Below, piece by piece: positions 1 to 30,993 of a DNA stretch of 30,993 nt (position 1 is the first letter of the stretch; every line of letters begins with the position of its first letter). The notes under the pieces are model-generated. The model did no database searches and was not told the DNA's origin. It saw only the letters and a list, made by a program, of their open reading frames with translations. The position numbers and the translations under genes were made by a program. The stretch lies in the IMG/VR virus record IMGVR_UViG_3300001525_000032. One strand, given 5' to 3'. This DNA comes from a virus.

Positions 1-75
1 CTCGCTTTTGACCGCGCCGCATGAGCCCTCAAAAAATTATTCTATCTTTTTCGCACAATTTACTTGACATTTGCG
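1..75. repeat. Terminal direct repeat, identical to 30919-30993; circular-genome assembly overlap or terminal redundancy
   Basis: Hand comparison: 'ctcgcttttgaccgcgccgcatgagccctc...cttgacatttgcg' occurs at both window ends. Positions 1-23 duplicate the last codons and stop of the transposase gene. Confidence 0.9.
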
Positions 76-92
76 GTTGTGCCGTTTATCAT
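64..92 (+). promoter_or_regulatory. Sigma-70/SigA-type promoter (TTGACA-17 nt-TATCAT) upstream of the HTH-only gene
   Basis: TTGACA at 64-69, a 17-nt spacer, then TATCAT at 87-92. It sits just downstream of the transposase stop across the circular junction. Confidence 0.5.
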
Positions 93-157
93 TAAGTGCG
101 AAAGAGCTACTAAGCTCCGACGCACTTATTTTTTTATGCAGAAACGGAGGCGAGACA

Positions 158-403
158 ATGAAATACGAGTGTTTGAAGCTCGAGGAGCGGCGGATTATCG
201 AGGCTATGTACGCCGAGGGTGCAAAGCCGGACGAAATCGCAAAGCGCGTCGGCAAGTGTCGAGCGACCATTTACCGCGAGCTCGAGCGGGGCAAGACCGG
301 CGAAACGGACTCTCGCTTTCGGCAAGGGTATAGCGCGGCGGTAGCGGAGGCTCGCGTCAATCGGTCGTACCGAAATAGAGGCCGTCGGAAAGCGGCTCAA
401 TGA
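158..403 (+). CDS. IS30-transposase N-terminal-like HTH protein with no DDE catalytic domain
   Basis: GGAGG at 146-150 precedes the ATG at 158. 'LKLEERRIIEAMYAEGAKPDEIAKRVGKCRATIYRELERGK...YSAAVAEAR' parallels the N-terminus of the 29893-30942 transposase ('...EIAEELGVHISTVYRELKRGT...YSPEKAEAR'). Confidence 0.7.
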   Translation: MKYECLKLEERRIIEAMYAEGAKPDEIAKRVGKCRATIYRELERGKTGETDSRFRQGYSAAVAEARVNRSYRNRGRRKAAQ

Positions 404-3652: not shown

Positions 3653-3667
3653 ATGGAGGAAAAGACG

Positions 3668-4303
3668 ATGCAACTCATTACCACAAGGAACAAGGAAATC
3701 TCTTTCGCAGAGCTCAAAAAGGCCATTTCGAGCGGGAACGGCCTCGAGCTTATCCGCCCGCGCGACAAGTTCGCTATCGAGCTCAAAAACGGCGAGCTCG
3801 TCAATGCCGTTTGCGGCGGCTACGTCAACGAGAAGCGCGCCCGCTTCGTCCTCGAGGACTGCCTCGCGGAAAAGTGGCGCATGAACGACACGCCGACCAA
3901 CAAGGGCGGATACCTCAAGAGCGAGGGACGGCGACACGTCCTCGAGGATATTCTCCCGCTTTTCCCGGACGAGCTCGCGGAGGCGTTCGTACCTCGCTTT
4001 TTGTCCGAGGAAATCGACGGCGAGCGCCACGAGTACGCCGATACCCTATGGATACCCTCCGCGACCGACGTTTTCGGCGCGGGGAATTGGTGGAACGAGG
4101 AGCCGGACAGCTTTCAACTTGAGATTTTCAAGCGCGAGCGCGACCGCGTGAAAGAGCACGTCGGAGACGGAACGTGGTTTTGGTGGCTCCGTTCCCCGCG
4201 TGCGAGCACCTCCTACTTTTTCGTGATTGTGTACACCGACGGCACAGTCAGCTACGCCAACGCGGGCATTTCGCTCGGCTTCGCGCCCGGCTTTGACCTG
4301 TAA
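3668..4303 (+). CDS. DGR target protein 2: stand-alone ligand-binding domain carrying VR2 at its C-terminus
   Basis: GGAGG at 3655-3659 favours the ATG at 3668, with an in-frame alternative at 3653. The C-terminus 'WWLRSPRASTSYFFVIVYTDGTVSYANAGISLGFAPGF' matches the TR-encoded peptide and the C-terminus of 22069-23322. Confidence 0.85.
   Translation: MQLITTRNKEISFAELKKAISSGNGLELIRPRDKFAIELKNGELVNAVCGGYVNEKRARFVLEDCLAEKWRMNDTPTNKGGYLKSEGRRHVLEDILPLFPDELAEAFVPRFLSEEIDGERHEYADTLWIPSATDVFGAGNWWNEEPDSFQLEIFKRERDRVKEHVGDGTWFWWLRSPRASTSYFFVIVYTDGTVSYANAGISLGFAPGFDL
4178..4294 (+). repeat. DGR variable repeat 2 (VR2)
   Basis: 117-nt hand alignment to TR 23840-23956. There are 18 differences, all at TR adenines, and none at the 85 non-A positions. 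Confidence 0.9.
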
Positions 4304-4364: not shown

Positions 4365-4604
4365 GTGGTTAGACGCAGAAAATCAAACCTCCCGAAATGG
4401 CGGTACGAGTTCGATTGCCGGAAATGCGACAACATTCGAGAGGTACACGACCCGCGCAAAGGCAGAGACGGCGATTACTGCATCCCGTGTATAGAGCGCA
4501 TGGACAGCCGCCGCCCGAGCCCGATACACGCAGACGAAAAAGAGCGCGTCCTCCGTTGCGAGTGCTTTACGCCTATCCCGGAGGACGAGGAGGGCGAAAA
4601 ATGA
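4365..4604 (+). CDS. Hypothetical zinc-ribbon-like protein
   Basis: GTG start 6 nt after GGAGG at 4354-4358. Contains 'CRKC...CIPC...C'. Confidence 0.55.
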   Translation: MVRRRKSNLPKWRYEFDCRKCDNIREVHDPRKGRDGDYCIPCIERMDSRRPSPIHADEKERVLRCECFTPIPEDEEGEK

Positions 4605-4834
4605 AACGCAAAAAGAAAAGCCGCCTCGCGGCGGCGGAACTCCTCGCCGTGCTTATCGTGACGGCGGTCGTTTTCATCAAGAGCAGAGGCTACGCGCTCG
4701 CGTGGCGCGGATACGAGGCCGTCGGCGGCGAGTTCATGCTCTTGCTCCTACCTATTATATATTACGAGGCAAAGCGAATTATCCTCGACTATGTGGCGGA
4801 CTTCGTAGCACTTTACCGCCGCTCGGAGGACTGA
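4601..4834 (+). CDS. Small membrane protein
   Basis: ATG at 4601 overlaps the upstream stop. 'MKRKKKSRLAAAELLAVLIVTAVVFI' and a second hydrophobic segment 'FMLLLLPIIYY'. Confidence 0.55.
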   Translation: MKRKKKSRLAAAELLAVLIVTAVVFIKSRGYALAWRGYEAVGGEFMLLLLPIIYYEAKRIILDYVADFVALYRRSED

Positions 4835-5050: not shown

Positions 5051-5815
5051 ATGAGAACAGTTTACCGAGAGAAACGCTATTATTGCGGCGAGTATCTCGA
5101 CGTATATATCTACCCGACCTATACACAGGCTCGGAGCAGAGGCAAGCGGAGCAAGCCGACCTCCGCCGCTCAAAAGAAACTCAACCAGCGGCACAGAGAG
5201 GAGAAGCTCGTCCGCCTCCTCCATGCGAACTTTACGCCGGACGACCTCGAAATCCATTTGACCTATCAGCACCAGCCGGAAAGCCCGGAGGAGGCGCAAC
5301 GCCTTTTACGGAATTATATCCGCCGGGTGCAGAGAGCGCGGAAAAAGCAAGGGCTCCCGCCGCTCAAGTACATAGCCGTTACGGAAAAGGGCTCCAAGAA
5401 TGGGCGCTATCATCATCACGTCACGCTATCCGGCGGAATGGATAGAGACGAGCTCGAAAACCTTTGGGGGCTCGGCTATGCCAACTCCCGCCGCTTGCAG
5501 TTCACAGAGAGCGGCCTCGCCGGGCTCGGTCATTACATCGTCAAGAGCCCGCTTTACTCTCGGGCATGGAACGCCTCGAAAAATCTTATCGACCCGGAGC
5601 CGAAAACACGGGACGGGCGTATCTCCGGCAGACGTGCCGAGGAGCTCGCCCGGGACACGACCAACAACGCCGAGTATGAAAAGCTCTATCCGGGCTATTT
5701 CCTCGCGGATGCTGGCGCATGGCACAACGACGTAAACGGAGGAAAGTATATCGTCGCCCGCTTTTATCGGCGGGACGGTGTATTTATAAAACCGAAACGG
5801 AGGAAACGAAAATGA
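5051..5815 (+). CDS. HUH-superfamily rolling-circle replication initiator (Rep)
   Basis: Motif I-like 'EIHLTY', HUH motif 'GRYHHHVTL' and catalytic Tyr motif 'GHYIVKS', in canonical order. Confidence 0.65.
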   Translation: MRTVYREKRYYCGEYLDVYIYPTYTQARSRGKRSKPTSAAQKKLNQRHREEKLVRLLHANFTPDDLEIHLTYQHQPESPEEAQRLLRNYIRRVQRARKKQGLPPLKYIAVTEKGSKNGRYHHHVTLSGGMDRDELENLWGLGYANSRRLQFTESGLAGLGHYIVKSPLYSRAWNASKNLIDPEPKTRDGRISGRRAEELARDTTNNAEYEKLYPGYFLADAGAWHNDVNGGKYIVARFYRRDGVFIKPKRRKRK

Positions 5816-6668: not shown

Positions 6669-6834
6669 GGCGCTTTCTCGCTTATTCTCATGTATTGAAA
6701 AAAAGGTGTATGGAAACTTGCATTTTCCCCGTGCTATCATTGAGGCGTAAAGAGAGGTCGAGGGAAACCTCGCCGCCGTGCGCCCCGCGCTTTATGCGCG
6801 AGGCGTTCTCTTTATCCACTCGGAGGCGGAGAGT

Positions 6835-7149
6835 ATGAGAGAGTTTGCGAAAGCGTTTTACGAGTCTCCGGCATGGAGGCGCACACGAGCATATATTCTC
6901 AAGCGAGACGCGGGGCTATGCGTCCATTGTGGCGAGCCCGGCGTTATCGTGCATCACAAGATAGAACTCACACCGAGGAACATCGACGACCCGGCAATCG
7001 CGCTCGGCGAGGATAACCTCGAGACAGTTTGCCGGACGTGTCACGCATTGATACACGAGGGAACGCCGCCGCTTGCCGACGGCCTCGCTTTCGATGCAGA
7101 CGGAAATATTATCACAGCGCCACATACCCCCCGGGGTGCGCCGAAATAG
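6835..7149 (+). CDS. HNH endonuclease
   Basis: 'CVHCGEPG...VHHK...N...LETVCRTCHALIH' (HNH/zinc-finger pattern). Its position next to the terminase genes is typical of HNH-dependent cos phages. Confidence 0.8.
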   Translation: MREFAKAFYESPAWRRTRAYILKRDAGLCVHCGEPGVIVHHKIELTPRNIDDPAIALGEDNLETVCRTCHALIHEGTPPLADGLAFDADGNIITAPHTPRGAPK

Positions 7150-7249
7150 ATACCCGGTAAGTAACCGCGCCTCAATCCTCGGAAGAACCGACCCGGGCGC
7201 GCACATGAGGGGGGGGTAAAACCGGGGCGGAGGGAGGTTTACTCATTAT

Positions 7250-23832: not shown

Positions 23833-23958
23833 CGCCGCTAATTGGTGGCTCCGTTCCCCGAATGCGAGCAACTCCAACAATTTCGTGAATGTGAACACCG
23901 ACGGCACAGTCAACAACAACAACGCGAACAATTCGCTCGGCTTCGCGCCCGGATTTTA
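23833..23958 (+). repeat. DGR template repeat (TR), non-coding
   Basis: Contains 13 AAY codon equivalents (would read 'NWWLRSPNASNSNNFVNVNTDGTVNNNNANNSLGFAPGF'). There is no start codon or RBS. It is the adenine-rich master copy of VR1 and VR2. Confidence 0.9.
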
Positions 23959-24192: not shown

Positions 24193-25311
24193 ATGAACAG
24201 CGCAGAACGACGCGAGGCACGGTATCAGCGTCGCAAGGCCGCGAGAATGAAAAAGAAAGCCGCCTCGCTCCGGGAACACGGAGATTTCGAGACGGTTTTC
24301 TCGTTCGAGCGGCTCTATGAGAGCTACCGCGCCTCCGTCCGTGGCGTTGGGTGGAAAGCGAGCACACAGCGATACAAAGCCGCCTCGCTCGCCAACGTCA
24401 CAAAGACACACGAGGAATTGATAGCCGGGAGATACCGCTCCAAGGGCTTTTACGAGTTCGATATTGTGGAGCGGGGAAAGCCGAGGCACATTCGGAGCGT
24501 CCATATCTCCGAGCGCGTCGTACAACGGTGCTTGTGCGATTACTGCCTTGTGCCGATGCTCTCCCGGTCGTTCATATACGACAACGGAGCGAGCTTGCGC
24601 GGCAAAGGATACGATTTCGCCGTATCCCGGGTGACGCGCTTTCTCGCGGAGCATTACAGGAAACACGGGCGGGAGGGCTACGTCCTCGTATTCGATTTTT
24701 CAAAGTATTTTGATACCGCCCGGCATGAGCCGGTATTTCGGGAGCTCGAGCGGAGCGGCATAGACGACCGCCTCGTTTCGCTCTCGAAATATTTTATTCA
24801 GAACTTCGGCGACGTGGGGCTCGGCCTCGGGAGCCAAGTCTCGCAAATCGCCGCGCTCGCCTTGCCGAACAGGATAGACCACTATATCAAGGACACGCTC
24901 GGCATGAAGCACTACGCCCGCTATATGGACGACGGGTGCATAATCAGCGAGTCAAAGGCAAAGCTCGAGCTCTGCCTCCGGGAACTCCGGCGGCTCTGCG
25001 ACGAGCTCGGTATCCGCCTCAATCCGAAAAAGACGCAGATTATCAAGCTCACGCGCGGCTTTACGTTCGTCAAGGTGCGCTTTCGCTATGGCGTAAACGG
25101 GAAAGTCGTCCGCCGGGCGACCTATAAGGGTATCCGGCACATGAGGGAGAAACTACGGATTTTCCGGCGCTGGGTGGACTCCGGCAGAATGACGGCGGCG
25201 GACGTGGAAACGTCCCTCGTCTCGTGGCGGGGACACATGAGGCGATTTCATTCGTACCACATGGCGCAGACCGTAGAGCGGCGCTATCGAGAATTATTCA
25301 AGGGAGGATAA
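24193..25311 (+). CDS. DGR reverse transcriptase
   Basis: RT motifs 'VLVFDFSKYFDT', the DGR-type motif 4 'LGSQVSQ' ([LIV]GxxxSQ), the catalytic 'YMDDG', then 'LNPKKTQI'. Confidence 0.9.
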   Translation: MNSAERREARYQRRKAARMKKKAASLREHGDFETVFSFERLYESYRASVRGVGWKASTQRYKAASLANVTKTHEELIAGRYRSKGFYEFDIVERGKPRHIRSVHISERVVQRCLCDYCLVPMLSRSFIYDNGASLRGKGYDFAVSRVTRFLAEHYRKHGREGYVLVFDFSKYFDTARHEPVFRELERSGIDDRLVSLSKYFIQNFGDVGLGLGSQVSQIAALALPNRIDHYIKDTLGMKHYARYMDDGCIISESKAKLELCLRELRRLCDELGIRLNPKKTQIIKLTRGFTFVKVRFRYGVNGKVVRRATYKGIRHMREKLRIFRRWVDSGRMTAADVETSLVSWRGHMRRFHSYHMAQTVERRYRELFKGG

Positions 25312-28310: not shown

Positions 28311-28850
28311 TCATGCCTTGCGGAAATAAACTGTTATCACTATGCCGTAGTTCATGCCGTCCCCGCCGATAATCTCGTAAAAGCGGATACGCTCGTATCG
28401 CTCCATAAGCGGGAGGAGTTCTTTCAAATCAGACCGAGAAATATTGCCGACTTGCTCGCCATTGTAATAAAGACCGACGGCGGGCTTTCCCTCATAGTCG
28501 TATGTATCGAGCGAGAGGTCGCTTGCCGGGGCTCCCTCGTTATCCAACTCGCGGAGTATTGCTTGACGGTTACGATATGGGGGCTCGTCGTTGGCAAAGG
28601 TAACGCCGACGATTTTATATTCCCGGACATCCCGCGTCTCCATTTCCCGGCGGATAGCCTCCTCTTGCGCCTCTACCCGCGCGCGGCGTTCTGCATCCTC
28701 ACGCTCTTTGGCCTCTCGGCGAGCTTGCTCCGCCTCCATACGAGCCCGCTTGAGGCGGCTCTTTTTGATTGCCCGATATATCCACACACAAATACCGATA
28801 GGATAAAAAATCACGAGCAACACGATTTGCCATGTTTTCAGTTTTTTCAT
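28311..28850 (-). CDS. Membrane-anchored HIRAN-domain protein (moron-like, the only reverse-strand gene)
   Basis: N-terminal TM 'WQIVLLVIFYPIGICVWIY' and charged coiled coil 'RMEAEQARREAKEREDAERRARVEAQEEAIRRE'. These are followed by 'YKIVGVTFAN...RQAILREL...LSLDTYDYEGKPAVGLYYNGEQVGNISRSDLKELLPLME', which is HIRAN-like. Confidence 0.6.
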   Translation of the reverse strand: MKKLKTWQIVLLVIFYPIGICVWIYRAIKKSRLKRARMEAEQARREAKEREDAERRARVEAQEEAIRREMETRDVREYKIVGVTFANDEPPYRNRQAILRELDNEGAPASDLSLDTYDYEGKPAVGLYYNGEQVGNISRSDLKELLPLMERYERIRFYEIIGGDGMNYGIVITVYFRKA

Positions 28851-28964: not shown

Positions 28965-29207
28965 TTGCGGATATACGATTTTGAGGGAAAGAAGAATATA
29001 AGCGGCGAGCGCATCCGGGAGGCGCGGCTCGGGCTCCGGCTCTCACAAAGCGACCTCGCGGCGCGGGTACAGGTCGAGGGCGTAACAATGGAGCGGGACT
29101 CGATAAGCCGTATCGAAATCGGAACGAGGTTTATTCCCGATTATGAGATACCCGTCTTTGCTCGCGTCCTCGGCGTGTCCGCCCTCTGGCTCCTCGGAAT
29201 AGAGTAA
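28965..29207 (+). CDS. XRE-family HTH transcriptional regulator (Cro/CI-like)
   Basis: TTG start 7 nt after GGGAGG. 'ISGERIREARLGLRLSQSDLAARVQVEGVTMERDSISRIEIG'. Confidence 0.75.
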   Translation: MRIYDFEGKKNISGERIREARLGLRLSQSDLAARVQVEGVTMERDSISRIEIGTRFIPDYEIPVFARVLGVSALWLLGIE

Positions 29208-29239
29208 ATCCCCGGCCTCCTCGCCGGGGATTATTTTTT
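29208..29239 (+). terminator. Rho-independent terminator
   Basis: 9-bp stem ATCCCCGGC/GCCGGGGAT with a 6-nt loop, followed by TATTTTTT. Confidence 0.75.
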
Positions 29240-29259: not shown

Positions 29260-29288
29260 TTGACATATACGGACGTATAGTTTATAAT
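29260..29288 (+). promoter_or_regulatory. Consensus SigA/sigma-70 promoter (TTGACA-17 nt-TATAAT)
   Basis: TTGACA at 29260-29265, exactly 17 nt of spacer, then TATAAT at 29283-29288. Confidence 0.75.
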
Positions 29289-29501: not shown

Positions 29502-29664
29502 GAAAAAAATCAACGTGCCGCTTTACCTCTTGTTTGCGGCGAACTGCATCTATGCGGTATCTCAACACGCTTTCAACTGGTTATTCTATGTGTCGGTGCT
29601 TTTGACGGCGGCGGTTTTGGCGCTTGATATTCGGGAGGCGGTGAAGAATGGACGAGAAAAGTAA
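29494..29664 (+). CDS. Possible 56-aa two-TM membrane protein, below the ORF-track size cutoff
   Basis: Hand translation gives 'MCKKKINVPLYLLFAANCIYAVSQHAFNWLFYVSVLLTAAVLALDIREAVKNGREK'. The end overlaps the next gene. No clear RBS. Confidence 0.35.
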   Translation: MCKKKINVPLYLLFAANCIYAVSQHAFNWLFYVSVLLTAAVLALDIREAVKNGREK

Positions 29665-29839
29665 ATACGCGCAACAAATAAAGAGCTTGCGGAAAAACTA
29701 TGTCCGTTTTCCGTTAGACCTCAAGCCGGACGTTTTAGAGCGTTTCCGGCGGATATGTGCGGAAAACGGTACAACTCCGACGACGGAGATAAAGAGGTTT
29801 ATTAACGAGTATTGCGATACCAACGATAAACAGCAGTAA
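29648..29839 (+). CDS. Small DNA-binding-like protein (possibly ribbon-helix-helix)
   Basis: GGGAGG RBS. 'KNYVRFPLDLKPDVLERFRRICAENGTTPTTEIKRFINEY' has an RHH-like beta-alpha-alpha layout. Confidence 0.45.
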   Translation: MDEKSKYAQQIKSLRKNYVRFPLDLKPDVLERFRRICAENGTTPTTEIKRFINEYCDTNDKQQ

Positions 29840-29843
29840 CGAG

Positions 29844-29869
29844 AGGGCGGGACTTTCCCGCCCTTTTTC
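29844..29869 (+). terminator. Rho-independent terminator
   Basis: 9-bp stem AGGGCGGGA/TCCCGCCCT with a 3-nt loop, followed by TTTTCT. Confidence 0.7.
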
Positions 29870-29892
29870 TATATCTTGAGGGAGGGCGCGCT

Positions 29893-30942
29893 ATGGGAGA
29901 GCGGACATATAAACAACTTAATTGGACGAGCCGTATCAAGCTCGAGACGATGCTCAAGCATGGACACTCGAAAAAGGAAATCGCCGAGGAGCTCGGCGTA
30001 CATATCAGCACCGTTTACCGTGAGCTCAAGCGCGGGACGTATGAGCATCTAAACTCCGATTATACGACCGAGGAACGGTATAGCCCGGAAAAGGCCGAGG
30101 CGCGCTATCAAGAGGGGCTCGCCGCGAAAGGTGCTCCGCTCAAGATTGGGAAAAATCACGCCGCCGCGCAGTTTATCGAGGACAAAATCGGAAACGAGGA
30201 CTATTCCCCGGCGGCGGTGTGCGCTCTACTCAAGCAGGAAAAATATAAACACTTCGGAATAACCTTTTGCCGTGCGACGATTTATAAATACGTCGAGGAC
30301 GGCGTTTTTCTCACGCTCACAAATCAAGACCTCCCGGAAAAGGGCGACCGCAAAAAGAAGCATAGAACAATCCGCAAGAAACAGGCTCGGGCATCCAGCG
30401 GCACGAGCATAGAGCAGAGGCCGGAGTATATCAACGAGCGGCAGGAGCCGGGACATTGGGAAATGGATACCGTCGTCGGGAAGAAGCGGACGAAAGCCCG
30501 CCTCCTCGTCCTCTCCGAACGTGTCACGCGGCGGGAAATCATTATCCGCATCAAGGACGGACGCGCCGAGACGGTCGTCGCGGCATTAGACCGCCTCGAG
30601 CGCCTTTATGGTGCGGCGTTCTATCGGATATTCAAAACGATAACCGTAGACAACGGCTCCGAGTTCGCGGATGCTGACGGCATCGAGCGGAGCGCCCGGC
30701 GCAAGGACTCAAAGCGGACGACGGTCTATTACTGCCATGCGTATAGCTCTTGTGAGCGCGGCACGAATGAGAATATTAACCGCATGATACGGCGGCAGTT
30801 CCCGAAAGGGACGGACTTCGACAAGGTAACGGCGGCGGAAGTGAAGCGCGTCGAGACGTGGCTCAACAACTACCCGCGAGAAATACTCGGCTTTATGTCC
30901 TCGGCGCAAGCGTTCGAGCTCGCTTTTGACCGCGCCGCATGA
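29893..30942 (+). CDS. IS30-family DDE transposase/integrase, full length
   Basis: N-terminal HTH 'EIAEELGVHISTVYRELKRG'. DDE region 'HWEMDTV', 'TVDNGSEF' and 'CERGTNENINRMIRRQFPKG'. Confidence 0.85.
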   Translation: MGERTYKQLNWTSRIKLETMLKHGHSKKEIAEELGVHISTVYRELKRGTYEHLNSDYTTEERYSPEKAEARYQEGLAAKGAPLKIGKNHAAAQFIEDKIGNEDYSPAAVCALLKQEKYKHFGITFCRATIYKYVEDGVFLTLTNQDLPEKGDRKKKHRTIRKKQARASSGTSIEQRPEYINERQEPGHWEMDTVVGKKRTKARLLVLSERVTRREIIIRIKDGRAETVVAALDRLERLYGAAFYRIFKTITVDNGSEFADADGIERSARRKDSKRTTVYYCHAYSSCERGTNENINRMIRRQFPKGTDFDKVTAAEVKRVETWLNNYPREILGFMSSAQAFELAFDRAA

Positions 30943-30993
30943 GCCCTCAAAAAATTATTCTATCTTTTTCGCACAATTTACTTGACATTTGCG
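30919..30993. repeat. Terminal direct repeat, identical to 1-75
   Basis: See feature 1-75. Confidence 0.9.

Follow-up and report, generated by a model that had tools for sequence, protein, structure and literature searches.

The window analysed here is the whole contig of 30,993 nt (IMG/VR record IMGVR_UViG_3300001525_000032), which represents a circularised 30.9-kb gut phage genome. A whole-window repeat search showed that bases 1–75 are identical to bases 30919–30993, and the unique length of the circular genome is 30,918 bp. This terminal identity makes it legitimate to read features across the contig junction, as an earlier reading of the letters alone (the sequence-only reading) had done. 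The genome is of the siphovirus type and encodes TerL, portal, prohead protease, capsid, connector and CHAP endolysin proteins, among others, as well as a rolling-circle-type replication initiator of its own (Pfam REP_ORF2-G2P, PHROG 3584) and an HNH endonuclease whose gene adjoins that of the large terminase. We identified no tyrosine or serine integrase among the ORFs scanned in the genome, and none in the Pfam annotation precomputed for 21 integrated relatives, in line with the earlier proposal that an IS30-type enzyme is the sole recombinase. The genes and signals at the two ends of the contig are the following.

28965–29207, plus strand: Cro/CI-type HTH regulator (Pfam HTH_31; PHROG transcriptional repressor/regulator families)
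29260–29288, plus strand: promoter TTGACA-17-TATAAT, matching 12 of 12 consensus positions and preceding small genes, the RHH gene and the transposase gene
29648–29839, plus strand: small regulator of the Arc/RHH type (PHROG 582, Arc-like repressor)
29841–29867, plus strand: strong terminator-like hairpin with a 12-bp stem and a T-run, directly 5′ of the transposase gene
29893–30942, plus strand: IS30-family DDE transposase, 349 aa (NF033563, HTH_38, rve, PHROG 4646)
1–75, plus strand: assembly overlap, equal to 30919–30993, including the 3′-terminal 22 nt of the transposase gene as well as the element’s right end
158–403, plus strand: HTH-only paralogue of the transposase N-terminus, 81 aa (HTH_38, 44 bits; PHROG 11420 over its full length)

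The transposase and its short paralogue

The sequence-only reading had described a full-length IS30-type DDE enzyme, and profile searches agree. The protein scored 231.5 bits against the NCBIfam equivalog NF033563 “IS30 family transposase” (cut-off 80), covering profile positions 1–266 of 267, and was matched over its full length by PHROG 4646 “transposase” (434 bits). Pfam places HTH_38 at residues 6–48 and rve at residues 183–285. Residues D192, D253 and E293, the last within the motif RGTNEN, are invariant across 15 homologues of 53–98% identity; based on known IS30 motifs, we take them to be the catalytic D, D, E triad. The product of 158–403, also correctly recognised from the sequence as an HTH-only IS30-type paralogue, is 36% identical to transposase residues 6–71 (E 3e-8). 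Both this protein and the N-terminal HTH of the transposase show weak matches to models of σ70 region 4.

Close homologues of the transposase occur in 497 phage contigs in IMG/VR. The exact allele of the window is rare, being present in two short contigs only, and its 98%-identical cluster representative (P0002), when looked up, was traced to another element that does not look like a phage (L022). When the last 5 kb were used to query a phage database, just distant relatives were returned, which share transposase or lysis genes, and an exact-protein look-up of the ORF at 4397–4834 returned no record.

Upstream of the transposase gene, the Cro/CI-type regulator belongs to the adjoining lysogeny module. 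The position of the RHH-type gene directly 5′ of the transposase is conserved, and the homologue of its product in relatives matches RepB-RCR_reg and RHH_1. The hairpin at 29841–29867 is also kept in two related contigs, L001 and L002.

Ends of the mobile unit, circle junction and host targets

The sequence-only reading had proposed a search for integrated copies and their ends. We drew host junctions from more than 140 related contigs. Exact look-ups of the HTH_31 and holin proteins yielded right ends only, on contigs that differ from the left-end set; both ends were recovered together by one degenerate DNA pattern matching the left and the right end. Integrated copies were found, and their ends map to T78 and G75 of the window.

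46–56 (also 30964–30974), plus strand: sub-terminal inverted-repeat arm of the right end, CTTTTTCGCAC, pairing with GTGCGAAAG
75 (= 30993), plus strand: right tip, a G, with abrupt divergence after ACTTGACATTTGCG
76–77, plus strand: 2-nt spacer GT between the abutted ends, the “coupling” sequence of the circle junction, seen in junction contigs
78–86, plus strand: left tip with a 5′-TG terminus, TGTGCCGTT
96–104, plus strand: sub-terminal inverted-repeat arm of the left end, GTGCGAAAG, pairing with 46–56

At the right tip, 87 distinct host flanks diverge abruptly. Three sequence contexts part exactly after ...TTTGCG, and base frequencies at the first host position beyond it (A.29, C.25, G.28, T.18) reveal no conservation. 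This tip lies 51 nt past the transposase stop codon, and the contig terminates precisely there. On the other side, 59 distinct host flanks stop immediately 5′ of T78. The left tip starts with TG at 73 of the 81 junction loci of the window’s lineage, with CG or AG in the remainder, and at all 40 junctions of a second, nd12-type lineage. With tips at positions 75 and 78, the mobile unit is the entire 30.9-kb genome. The HTH-only ORF, which begins 80 nt inside the left tip and is directed inward, is the first gene in all ten integrated copies in which this was scored, and the transposase gene, reading outward, is the final one before host DNA in 11 of 11. Judged by these junctions, the prophage in lysogens is thus seen to span T78 to G75, with the HTH-only gene first and the outward transposase gene last. 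It had been suggested that the enzyme is a domesticated phage integrase and not an IS that landed in the phage; the host junctions, by making the whole phage the mobile unit, support the IS30-type transposase as the phage’s own integrase.

In 51 non-redundant junction contigs the abutted ends are separated by 2 nt (48 contigs), 3 nt (two) or 1 nt (one), and in the nd12-type lineage by 2 nt at 40 of 40 junctions. The spacer is variable, with sixteen different dinucleotides among the junction contigs; in composition it is slightly closer to the first 2 nt of the right flanks than to the last 2 nt of the left flanks, a weak preference of 5.4 log-likelihood units. As read from these assembled junctions, the free form is a circle whose tips are joined through a variable spacer, usually of 2 nt, and it matches the minicircles of IS30. 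By the copy-out/paste-in chemistry of IS30, the DDE transposase would make this circle junction and then use it as the integration substrate.

The tips themselves are poor inverted repeats and in this are unlike those of classical IS30: global alignment of the two ends matched only the 5′-YG...CR-3′ dinucleotides and the 9–11 bp sub-terminal repeat. The two sub-terminal arms vary in parallel in Faecalibacterium phage FP_Lagaffe (hereafter Lagaffe), nd12, L155, L163 and L170, and CTTTTTCGCAC is presumed to be a transposase-binding site. The absence of convincing terminal inverted repeats at the transposase gene had been remarked on from the sequence, and the repeat search together with the end alignment returned nothing beyond this 9–11 bp match. 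The 7-nt match noticed at the same time is present, with ttgaggg at 29876–29882 and its complement ccctcaa at 30944–30950; as an element boundary this short pair is unsupported, and we assign it no role.

The length of the target duplications was determined from 12 pairs of left and right flanks, including those of a full-length 32.2-kb prophage on contig OLSB01000271.1; several of the pairs combine flanks from different contigs or samples that are assumed to derive from the same insertion. The duplication was 15 bp in eight pairs and 13, 14, 16 and 18 bp in one pair each. The sequence-only reading had asked for target duplications to be defined; they are of about 15 bp (13–18) and not the 2–3 bp of a plain IS30. 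Integrated copies occupy many different chromosomal sites, and a host promoter of the σ70 type recurs next to the left tip. Its −35 element lies at offset 26 from the tip in 28 of 59 flanks (P ~1e-77) and at offsets 25–27 in 38 of 59 (P ~1e-93), against a background rate of 4.6e-4 per position. The left tip is thereby placed upstream of the targeted promoter, with 26±1 nt to the −35, in one orientation, and the promoter fires away from the phage. No favoured promoter offset was detected in the right flanks, where the maximum at any single position was 2 of 87. The nd12-type lineage has a promoter at offsets 25–27 in 19 of 30 flanks. About one third of insertions have no recognisable adjacent promoter, and some lie inside genes. 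A left tip 26 nt from the −35 and a duplication of about 15 bp together place the staggered cuts approximately 11 and 26 nt upstream of the −35. Target choice would read either RNA polymerase complexed with the promoter or the −35/UP region as such.

The predicted split junction promoter and a proposed role of the HTH-only protein

The sequence-only reading had noted a TTGACA-17-TATCAT promoter at 64–92 and had pointed to abutted IS30 ends as promoter-forming. The promoter is present, matching 11 of 12 consensus positions (shuffled sequence averages 0.3 such sites), and at the level of sequence it is indeed divided between the ends: the −35 belongs to the right end and the −10 to the left, on either side of the 2-nt spacer.

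64–69 (also 30982–30987), plus strand: −35 hexamer TTGACA in the right end, 6 nt from the tip
87–92, plus strand: −10 hexamer TATCAT in the left end, forming a 17-nt-spaced promoter with 64–69 only on joined ends
93–135, plus strand: conserved terminator-like hairpin (93–128) followed by a T-run (129–135), −17.4 kcal/mol, z −4.96

TTGAC(A/T) is held at a constant distance from the tip in lineages whose transposases are 53–68% identical, and the −10 position in relatives reads TAT(C/T/A)AT or TAATAT. This split geometry is kept in Lagaffe, nd12, L155, L159, L163 and L170, whereas the tips and sub-terminal repeats diverge. The hairpin that follows shows compensatory changes at 5 of 10 pairs across ten lineages, and the T-run, six positions of which are invariant, is conserved in all ten. 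Promoter geometry puts the predicted start at ~98–101, which overlaps both the 5′ arm of this hairpin and the left-end arm at 96–104.

From sequence geometry and conservation we propose that the joining of the ends assembles a strong promoter, with the −35 from the right, the −10 from the left and a 17-nt gap, from which the HTH-only gene and the early genes that follow would be transcribed only in the circular genome. In the prophage the same promoter would be split and silent. The leader hairpin and T-run would stop transcripts arriving from upstream, and transcripts of the junction promoter, starting within the 5′ arm of the hairpin, would escape termination. The HTH-only protein may bind the sub-terminal repeats GTGCGAAA, one of which overlaps the predicted transcription start; it would in this way autoregulate expression from the junction promoter, alter the activity of the transposase, or both. 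Truncated N-terminal regulators are found in other IS families, and the role proposed here resembles theirs.

The two hexamers could alternatively be determinants of transposase recognition or cleavage, with a likeness to σ70 elements that has no transcriptional function. Both are no more than 15 nt from the tips, in the zone expected to hold end-recognition sequences; the weak σ70 region 4 matches of the transposase HTH and the HTH-only protein concern the region that reads −35 boxes; and the targets, too, hold a −35 box at a fixed distance. As a replacement for promoter function we nevertheless find this explanation unlikely, since the hexamers stay near the σ70 consensus and 17 nt apart though neighbouring end sequences diverge between lineages, since the −10 varies solely among the promoter-compatible forms TATCAT, TATTAT, TATAAT and TAATAT, and since junction promoters are established for IS30 itself. 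The promoter and recognition readings are mutually compatible, and conservation of the hexamers could partly be due to transposase recognition rather than promoter function.

The left-end gene has also been framed as a relic, in the paper that describes the IScream phages (Wirbel, Hickey et al., Nature 2025; PMC12823448). According to this framing two IS30 copies once flanked the phage as in a composite transposon, and the left one is now a functionless remnant; the HTH-only ORF would be a “deprecated” fragment and the junction promoter incidental. Selection on the gene argues for a functional protein, as dN/dS across 38 alleles is 0.07–0.15, indicative of strong purifying selection. The exact 81-aa protein is found in >8,000 index blocks of the assembly collection and is identical in ten of ten contigs with differing neighbour genes. 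It has its own full-length PHROG family, and a small HTH gene occupies the equivalent place in Lagaffe, nd12 and L170. The protein is, on the other hand, a homologue of the IS30 N-terminus, encoded close behind the left end, at the place expected for the N-terminus of a left IS copy, and the inward copies of Wirbel et al. are very variable in length and without catalytic domains. End alignment detected no inner IS ends. Overall we judge a functionless remnant improbable; a composite origin is possible as history, but it leaves the present state unexplained.

Nature of the element, known systems and meaning

The proposed junction-promoter mechanism included, we consider it likely that the entire 30.9-kb siphovirus-type genome is one IS30-like transposable unit, an “IScream” phage. 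A Mu-like phage, which would use the transposase for replicative transposition in lytic growth and package from scattered chromosomal copies, would likewise have a DDE (rve-fold) transposase and many insertion sites, and copy-out chemistry could retain donor copies. Such a life cycle is very improbable here given the phage’s own rolling-circle-type initiator, the HNH endonuclease beside the large terminase, the demonstrated cos site of Lagaffe and the many viral contigs that show a precise end-to-end junction instead of random host DNA at both ends; domain scans of the genome also brought out no MuB-like or Mu-type end-binding domains.

That a plain IS30-family IS of ~1.1–1.6 kb landed in an ordinary phage, unrelated to its integration, is already contradicted by duplications of ~15 bp and by host DNA directly outside tips that are 30.9 kb apart, and we hold it to be almost certainly wrong even though the protein passes the IS30 equivalog model, L001 resembles the window (98.6% identity) solely over 1,162 bp around the transposase gene, and a 98%-identical copy with the same right end resides in the non-phage-looking L022. 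L001 and L002 retain the same RHH gene and terminator 5′ of the transposase, so the boundary of similarity reflects mosaic divergence and not an IS end, and the terminal position of the gene is constant in every relative, including Lagaffe and nd12. IS30-type inverted repeats with 2–3 bp duplications bounding only such a short unit, which the sequence-only reading had named as the mark of a plain insertion, were looked for with negative result: neither the whole-window repeat search nor the global alignment of the two ends revealed convincing IS-sized inverted repeats bracketing the transposase gene alone, nor did we find duplications around it.

Phages that have a full-length IS30 gene pointing outward at one end, and a truncated IS30 gene at the other, have been named IScream phages; they form circles and virions, are reported to be common and widespread in the human gut (1,780 candidates in a single catalogue) and to occur in hosts of different families, have transposases placed in a phage-specific IS30 sub-clade, and carry inward IS30 copies termed “deprecated” (PMC12823448). 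The window fits this description point by point, as a tailed temperate Clostridia gut phage with no classical integrase, many host contexts and circular forms, with an outward full-length transposase at one end and an inward IS30-like ORF lacking the catalytic domain at the other. It differs in that its inward short gene looks functional, in contrast to the “deprecated” copies. A search of the text of PMC12823448 found no mention of a promoter, target site, inverted or direct repeat, integration or insertion site. What is reported here on the exact tips, the 2-nt spacer, the ~15-bp duplication, the 26-nt distance to the −35, the split promoter and purifying selection acting on the short paralogue therefore seems to add to that description.

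An IS30-family integrase was reported earlier in Lagaffe (NC_047911; Cornuault et al, 2018; PMC5883640). The local order is alike, with a regulator, an “integrase, IS30 transposase family” (gp37) and a small HTH DNA-binding protein (gp38), and so is the intergenic layout (TTTCGCAT ... TTGACT ... TAATAT-TAA-ATGCGAAA). We also count as likenesses that Lagaffe carries a DGR, that its prophage is flanked by direct repeats and that the phage has a cos site. It is a distinct phage with a 48-kb myovirus-type genome, its transposase is 53% identical to that of the window at the protein level, and at the DNA level only ~260 bp of the transposase gene are similar (70%).

IS30 is an element of 1.2 kb with 26-bp inverted repeats, which duplicates 2 bp of its target and inserts into palindromic hot spots or its own ends. 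In E. coli it forms circles with 2-bp end spacing and the junction promoter Pjunc (PMC9333248). The phage shares the transposase family, ends abutted via 2 bp and a promoter formed at the junction, here a predicted one. By contrast, its unit is 30.9 kb long, its duplications are ~15 bp, its targets are regions upstream of σ70 promoters, and its junction promoter faces the short HTH paralogue, with the transposase gene ~29.8 kb beyond it, at the opposite end of the genome.

Promoter targeting is a property of TnGBS, ISLre2 and ISKra4, whose Mutator-like DDE transposases insert upstream of σA promoters (PMC3942029). As in TnGBS, the element inserts in one orientation and at a set distance upstream of a σ70-type −35, a DDE transposase replaces the integrase of a large element, and the intermediate is circular. 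The window’s lineage shows targeting of this type on the left side only (38 of 59 left flanks at offsets 25–27). The TnGBS transposase, however, is Mutator-like (p-MULT) and of an unrelated superfamily, that of the window being IS30/rve; TnGBS inserts 15–17 bp from the −35, compared with 26 bp for the left tip and ~11 bp for the proximal cut here; and the TnGBS elements are conjugative, not phages. The similarity looks functional and convergent.

Within the IS30 family, IS1630 of Mycoplasma fermentans likewise makes long, variable duplications of 16–26 bp; it differs in being a small IS that has 27-bp inverted repeats and no phage cargo, and in its reported targets, which are inverted repeats and not promoters. 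ICE6013 of Staphylococcus aureus is a large element in which an IS30-like DDE enzyme takes the place of a tyrosine or serine recombinase. A short coupling sequence is present in its circular form, its duplications are short, and it is conjugative, not viral; we know of no promoter targeting reported for it.

The class is thus already published (Lagaffe in 2018, IScream phages in 2025), and the idea of the transposase as integrase is not new. Promoter targeting, the ~15-bp duplication and the split promoter were not found in PMC5883640 or PMC12823448, and we found no literature on promoter targeting in the IS30 family, which is no proof of absence. The underlying sequence patterns are solid. 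That both promoter targeting at a fixed position in one orientation and a split promoter assembled by circularisation are real mechanisms, hitherto unreported, we believe by a slight balance of the evidence. On the side of targeting, integration with a ~15-bp stagger and with the left tip 26 nt upstream of the −35 of active-looking host σ70 promoters may be a convergent counterpart of TnGBS targeting, in a virus and in an unrelated transposase family. As for the promoter, expression of the HTH-only and early genes may be coupled physically to circularisation, the leader terminator being bypassed by junction transcripts only.

If the target rule holds true, it would explain how so many sites can be occupied without gene disruption, as landing upstream leaves the core promoter intact, and it predicts which host genes are possibly affected by insertion. 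Together with the exact ends and the junction it supplies a sequence signature for base-exact prophage boundaries and turns a genomic description into a testable mechanism. These phages would also be, next to TnGBS, an independent second case in which to study promoter sensing by a DDE transposase. A split promoter that works as proposed would link lytic or early expression to genome topology in a compact manner.

The phage genome and its transposase

Bases 1–75 of the window exactly repeat 30919–30993, identifying a circularised contig with a unique length of 30,918 bp. The + strand carries nearly all genes. Apart from the transposase region, profile matches describe an ordinary temperate siphovirus-type phage with genes for portal, prohead protease, capsid, connector and tail proteins, a CHAP/SLH endolysin, Cro/CI-type and Arc-like regulators, and an HNH endonuclease adjoining the large terminase. 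Scanning the ORFs revealed neither a tyrosine nor a serine recombinase, in agreement with the sequence-only reading, which had recognised only a full-length IS30-type DDE transposase. This enzyme scored 231.5 bits against the NCBIfam IS30-family equivalog model (cut-off 80), contains HTH_38 (residues 6–48) and rve (residues 183–285) domains according to Pfam, and is covered over its full length by PHROG 4646 “transposase”. Residues D192, D253 and E293, the last within an RGTNEN motif, are invariant in an alignment with 14 homologues (53–98% identity).

Transposase gene, upstream signals and short paralogue (window coordinates)
29893–30942, + strand: IS30-family transposase, 349 aa (NCBIfam, Pfam and PHROG profiles)
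29841–29867: strong terminator with a 12-bp stem, directly before the transposase gene
29260–29288: perfect consensus promoter TTGACA-17-TATAAT, upstream of small genes and the Arc-like regulator
158–403: HTH-only protein, 81 aa (Pfam HTH_38)

No promoter-like site was found between the terminator at 29841–29867 and the transposase start codon, and the likely source of the enzyme is low-level read-through out of the lysogeny/early module. A further terminator (29207–29232) follows the Cro/CI-type gene and precedes the consensus promoter. The arrangement of this promoter and the two terminators suggests that transposase expression is tightly limited.

Several other features of the genome were recorded. 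Regions 5051–5815 and 6778–9294 together cover a rolling-circle-type replication initiator (Pfam REP_ORF2-G2P, PHROG 3584), here in a tailed phage, and the HNH endonuclease with the adjoining large terminase; a PAPS-reductase-family gene lies at 1024–1929. The only convincing minus-strand ORF (28311–28850, 179 aa) is divergent from an HTH_31 gene in a repressor-like position and lacks Pfam and PHROG matches; relatives carry 89+127-aa ORFs, a 181-aa ORF or a + strand 156-aa ORF at this position. In-frame tandem repeats, each of three copies, occur at 21415–21795 (123 nt, inside ORF 21092–22066) and at 16695–17078 (132 nt, inside the 920-aa ORF 14944–17706, which is likely the tape-measure gene). 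A diversity-generating retroelement (RT 24193–25311, TR 23833–23957) has two targets, VR1 (23190–23314) and VR2 (4171–4295), and in the repeat core all TR mismatches against both VRs sit on template adenines. VR1 forms the end of a 417-aa ORF (22069–23322) whose counterpart in related prophages contains DUF6273; VR2 forms the end of a second DUF6273 protein (3653–4303), ~19.5 kb away and close to the left end.

Ends of the mobile unit and the circle junction

Two short metagenome contigs encoding an identical transposase match the window up to ...ACTTGACATTTGCG, which ends at window position 75 (=30993); there the similarity stops abruptly, and the two contigs continue into DNA that differs between them. 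Both retain the RHH gene and terminator in diverged form 5' of the transposase gene, indicating that the upstream side is not a boundary. For the other end, we compared ten long contigs encoding the HTH-only protein, which is listed by >8,000 index blocks. In all ten, which represent ten unrelated neighbourhoods, its gene is the first after host DNA; TGTGCCGTTTATCATT... is common to them and the sequence differs immediately 5' of it. Correspondingly, the transposase gene is the last before host DNA in ten further contigs, retrieved by a holin look-up and representing ten other neighbourhoods.

Genomes and metagenomes were then searched with a single degenerate pattern that fits both ends. With duplicates removed, this gave 59 distinct left-tip host flanks, 87 distinct right-tip host flanks and 51 non-redundant contigs with the tips joined. 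The base just outside either tip is without conservation, which delimits the transposable unit as T78 through G75. Integrated copies, which the sequence-only reading had proposed to look for, therefore exist, and its idea of a domesticated phage integrase rather than a landed IS is supported, as the mapped unit is the whole phage. We conclude with high confidence that the entire phage is the transposable unit and that the transposase serves as its integrase. The last contig base, 30993 (=75), coincides with the right tip, which suggests an assembly-graph branch arising from coexisting circular and integrated forms, or from several spacers. At locus L022 (10001–11050 and flanks, ENA ERZ28614134 scaffold_10032), a different element ends in a 98%-identical transposase followed by the same right end. 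This element carries ParA, ParB, σ70-like and DUF819x genes, with phage structural genes absent within 10 kb. Possibly, a non-phage or plasmid-like element has the transposase and right-end module in common with the phage.

The joined tips are separated by 2 nt in 48 of the 51 contigs, by 3 nt in two and by 1 nt in one. Sixteen different dinucleotides occupy this spacer, the window having GT (76–77), and a weak signal places its composition nearer to the first two bases of right flanks than to the last two of left flanks. In a second related lineage, the nd12-type, whose transposase is ~59% identical to that of the window, the spacer is 2 nt in 40/40 junctions. The same structure is known from IS30, whose circles and dimers have ends abutted through 2 bp (PMC9333248).

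Target duplication and target choice

Twelve pairs of left and right flanks show a direct duplication. It is 15 bp long in eight of them, and the other four have 13, 14, 16 and 18 bp, respectively. The 2–3 bp duplications that the sequence-only reading had associated with a plain IS insertion were not seen. Long duplications have a precedent within the IS30 family in IS1630 (16–26 bp). One pair bounds a full-length prophage of 32.2 kb, as calculated from coordinates (contig OLSB01000271.1). Another (loci L086 and L081; CAKUPH010000013.1, an Oscillospiraceae MAG) bounds a 1,886-bp element, located 26 nt from a promoter, that keeps both ends and a 15-bp duplication. Inside it lie the HTH-only gene, a 116-aa ORF that is unrelated, and a transposase gene lacking its 5' part; the element is probably a prophage minus ~29 kb through internal deletion.

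Left flanks were read outward from the phage for σ70-type promoters, defined as TTG, 16–18 nt and a −10 hexamer in which A2 and T6 are present and four or more of the six positions match. The −35 hexamer begins exactly 27 nt from the left tip (offset 26) in 28/59 flanks (binomial P ~1e-77) and at offsets 25–27 in 38/59 (P ~1e-93), given a background rate of 4.6e-4 per position in ~330 kb of DNA of the same hosts. Among the 30 left flanks with TTG at offset 26, 28 also have the −10 box. Right flanks reach at most 2/87 at any single promoter offset. The nd12-type lineage has a promoter at offsets 25–27 in 19/30 flanks. The flanking host promoter always reads outward from the phage. Seven of the duplication pairs have a promoter at offset 26, and in each of them the duplication is exactly 15 bp. 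This places one cut ~11 nt and the other ~26 nt upstream of the −35 box, sparing the core promoter and the A/T-rich stretch beside it. A recognisable promoter is absent at about a third of sites, and a few sites lie within genes. Three loci (L239, L255 and L268) share a coding-like left flank (...CTCATCATGGCGAAG|phage) with no promoter at the expected offset; this may be a non-promoter site that was either hit repeatedly or inherited.

The closest precedent for promoter-upstream insertion is TnGBS together with ISLre2 and ISKra4, which insert 15–17 bp upstream of the −35 box (PMC3942029); their transposases are Mutator-like, whereas that of this phage is IS30-type. The transposase would sense promoters either by recognising promoter-bound RNA polymerase or by reading the −35/UP region directly. 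HTH_38 domains match σ70 region 4 models weakly.

The proposed split promoter, the short paralogue and relation to known phages

The tips are poor inverted repeats, the only correspondence being between a left 5'-TG (or CG) and a right CG-3' (or CA-3'). A 9–11 bp inverted repeat lies ~18–19 nt inside each tip.

Features around the junction (window coordinates)
46–56: sub-terminal inverted-repeat arm, right end, CTTTTTCGCAC
64–69 and 87–92: promoter-like site TTGACA-17-TATCAT, 11/12 consensus positions
96–104: sub-terminal inverted-repeat arm, left end, GTGCGAAAG

The arms change in parallel across lineages (TTTCGCAT / ATGCGAAA in Faecalibacterium phage Lagaffe, TTCTGCTTT / AAATGCAGAA in nd12, and others), a pattern expected of a transposase-binding site. 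The promoter noticed in the sequence-only reading, including its formation by abutted ends, is borne out at the sequence level: 6 nt separate the −35 box from the right tip and 9 nt separate the −10 box from the left tip, which together with the 2-nt spacer make up the 17-nt gap. In an integrated copy, 30.9 kb separate the two halves. Because this geometry is kept while the adjoining sequence diverges among lineages, and because IS30 forms a junction promoter, Pjunc (PMC9333248), we think that the junction promoter is real and present only in the circular genome. Our confidence in a promoter-switch mechanism is moderate.

Directly after the −10 box, a hairpin (93–128; −17.4 kcal/mol, z −4.96) is followed by a run of seven T. 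Across ten lineages, 5/10 hairpin pairs show compensatory changes; the T-run is kept in all ten, six of its positions being invariant. The predicted transcript start (98–101, ~7 nt past the −10 box) falls inside the 5' arm, and a transcript from there is predicted to be unable to form the outer stem (fold of 99–160). The hairpin would thus terminate transcripts from upstream and pass those of the junction promoter. A DNA-level role is also possible, because its arms repeat a GTGCG motif.

The gene at 158–403, which the sequence-only reading had described as an HTH-only paralogue, encodes a protein aligning with transposase residues 6–71 at 36% identity. The possibility of a decaying fragment is contradicted by dN/dS values of 0.07–0.15 (38 alleles against that of the window), by identical proteins in ten contigs with differing neighbour genes, by a PHROG family of its own, and by a small HTH gene occupying this position in Lagaffe (gp38), nd12 and further lineages. 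Truncated N-terminal regulators exist in other IS families; by analogy, the HTH-only protein would most likely bind the sub-terminal repeats, one of which overlaps the predicted transcription start, and regulate the junction promoter and/or the transposase.

The Lagaffe (NC_047911) integrase was described as “atypical ... IS30 transposase family”, and direct repeats around its prophage were noted, as was a cos site (Cornuault et al, 2018; PMC5883640). Wirbel, Hickey et al (Nature 2025; PMC12823448) defined “IScream phages” by a full-length IS30 that points outward at one end, with a truncated copy pointing inward at the opposite end. They reported 22 from their own data set plus 1,780 candidates from MGV, and for a phage of B. 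hansenii they demonstrated both circles and virions. The window shows every IScream-class feature tested. The sequence-only observation is confirmed; its interpretation is therefore right but already published, and this phage belongs to a class that is known, though described only recently. Genome matches are mostly labelled Oscillospiraceae, Oscillibacter sp. ER4 or unclassified Clostridiales MAGs. The same prophage ends (L079–L094) occur in a few bins labelled Lachnospiraceae, Coprococcus (Coprococcus eutactus), Bacteroidales and Staphylococcaceae, which may reflect binning error or a broad cross-family host range, as reported for IScream phages (PMC12823448). The text of that paper does not mention promoters, target, integration or insertion sites, or inverted or direct repeats, and a literature search for promoter targeting in the IS30 family found nothing. 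Features that may be new are the target rule, the ~15-bp duplication, the spacer at the junction, the split promoter together with its leader, and the selection acting on the short paralogue.
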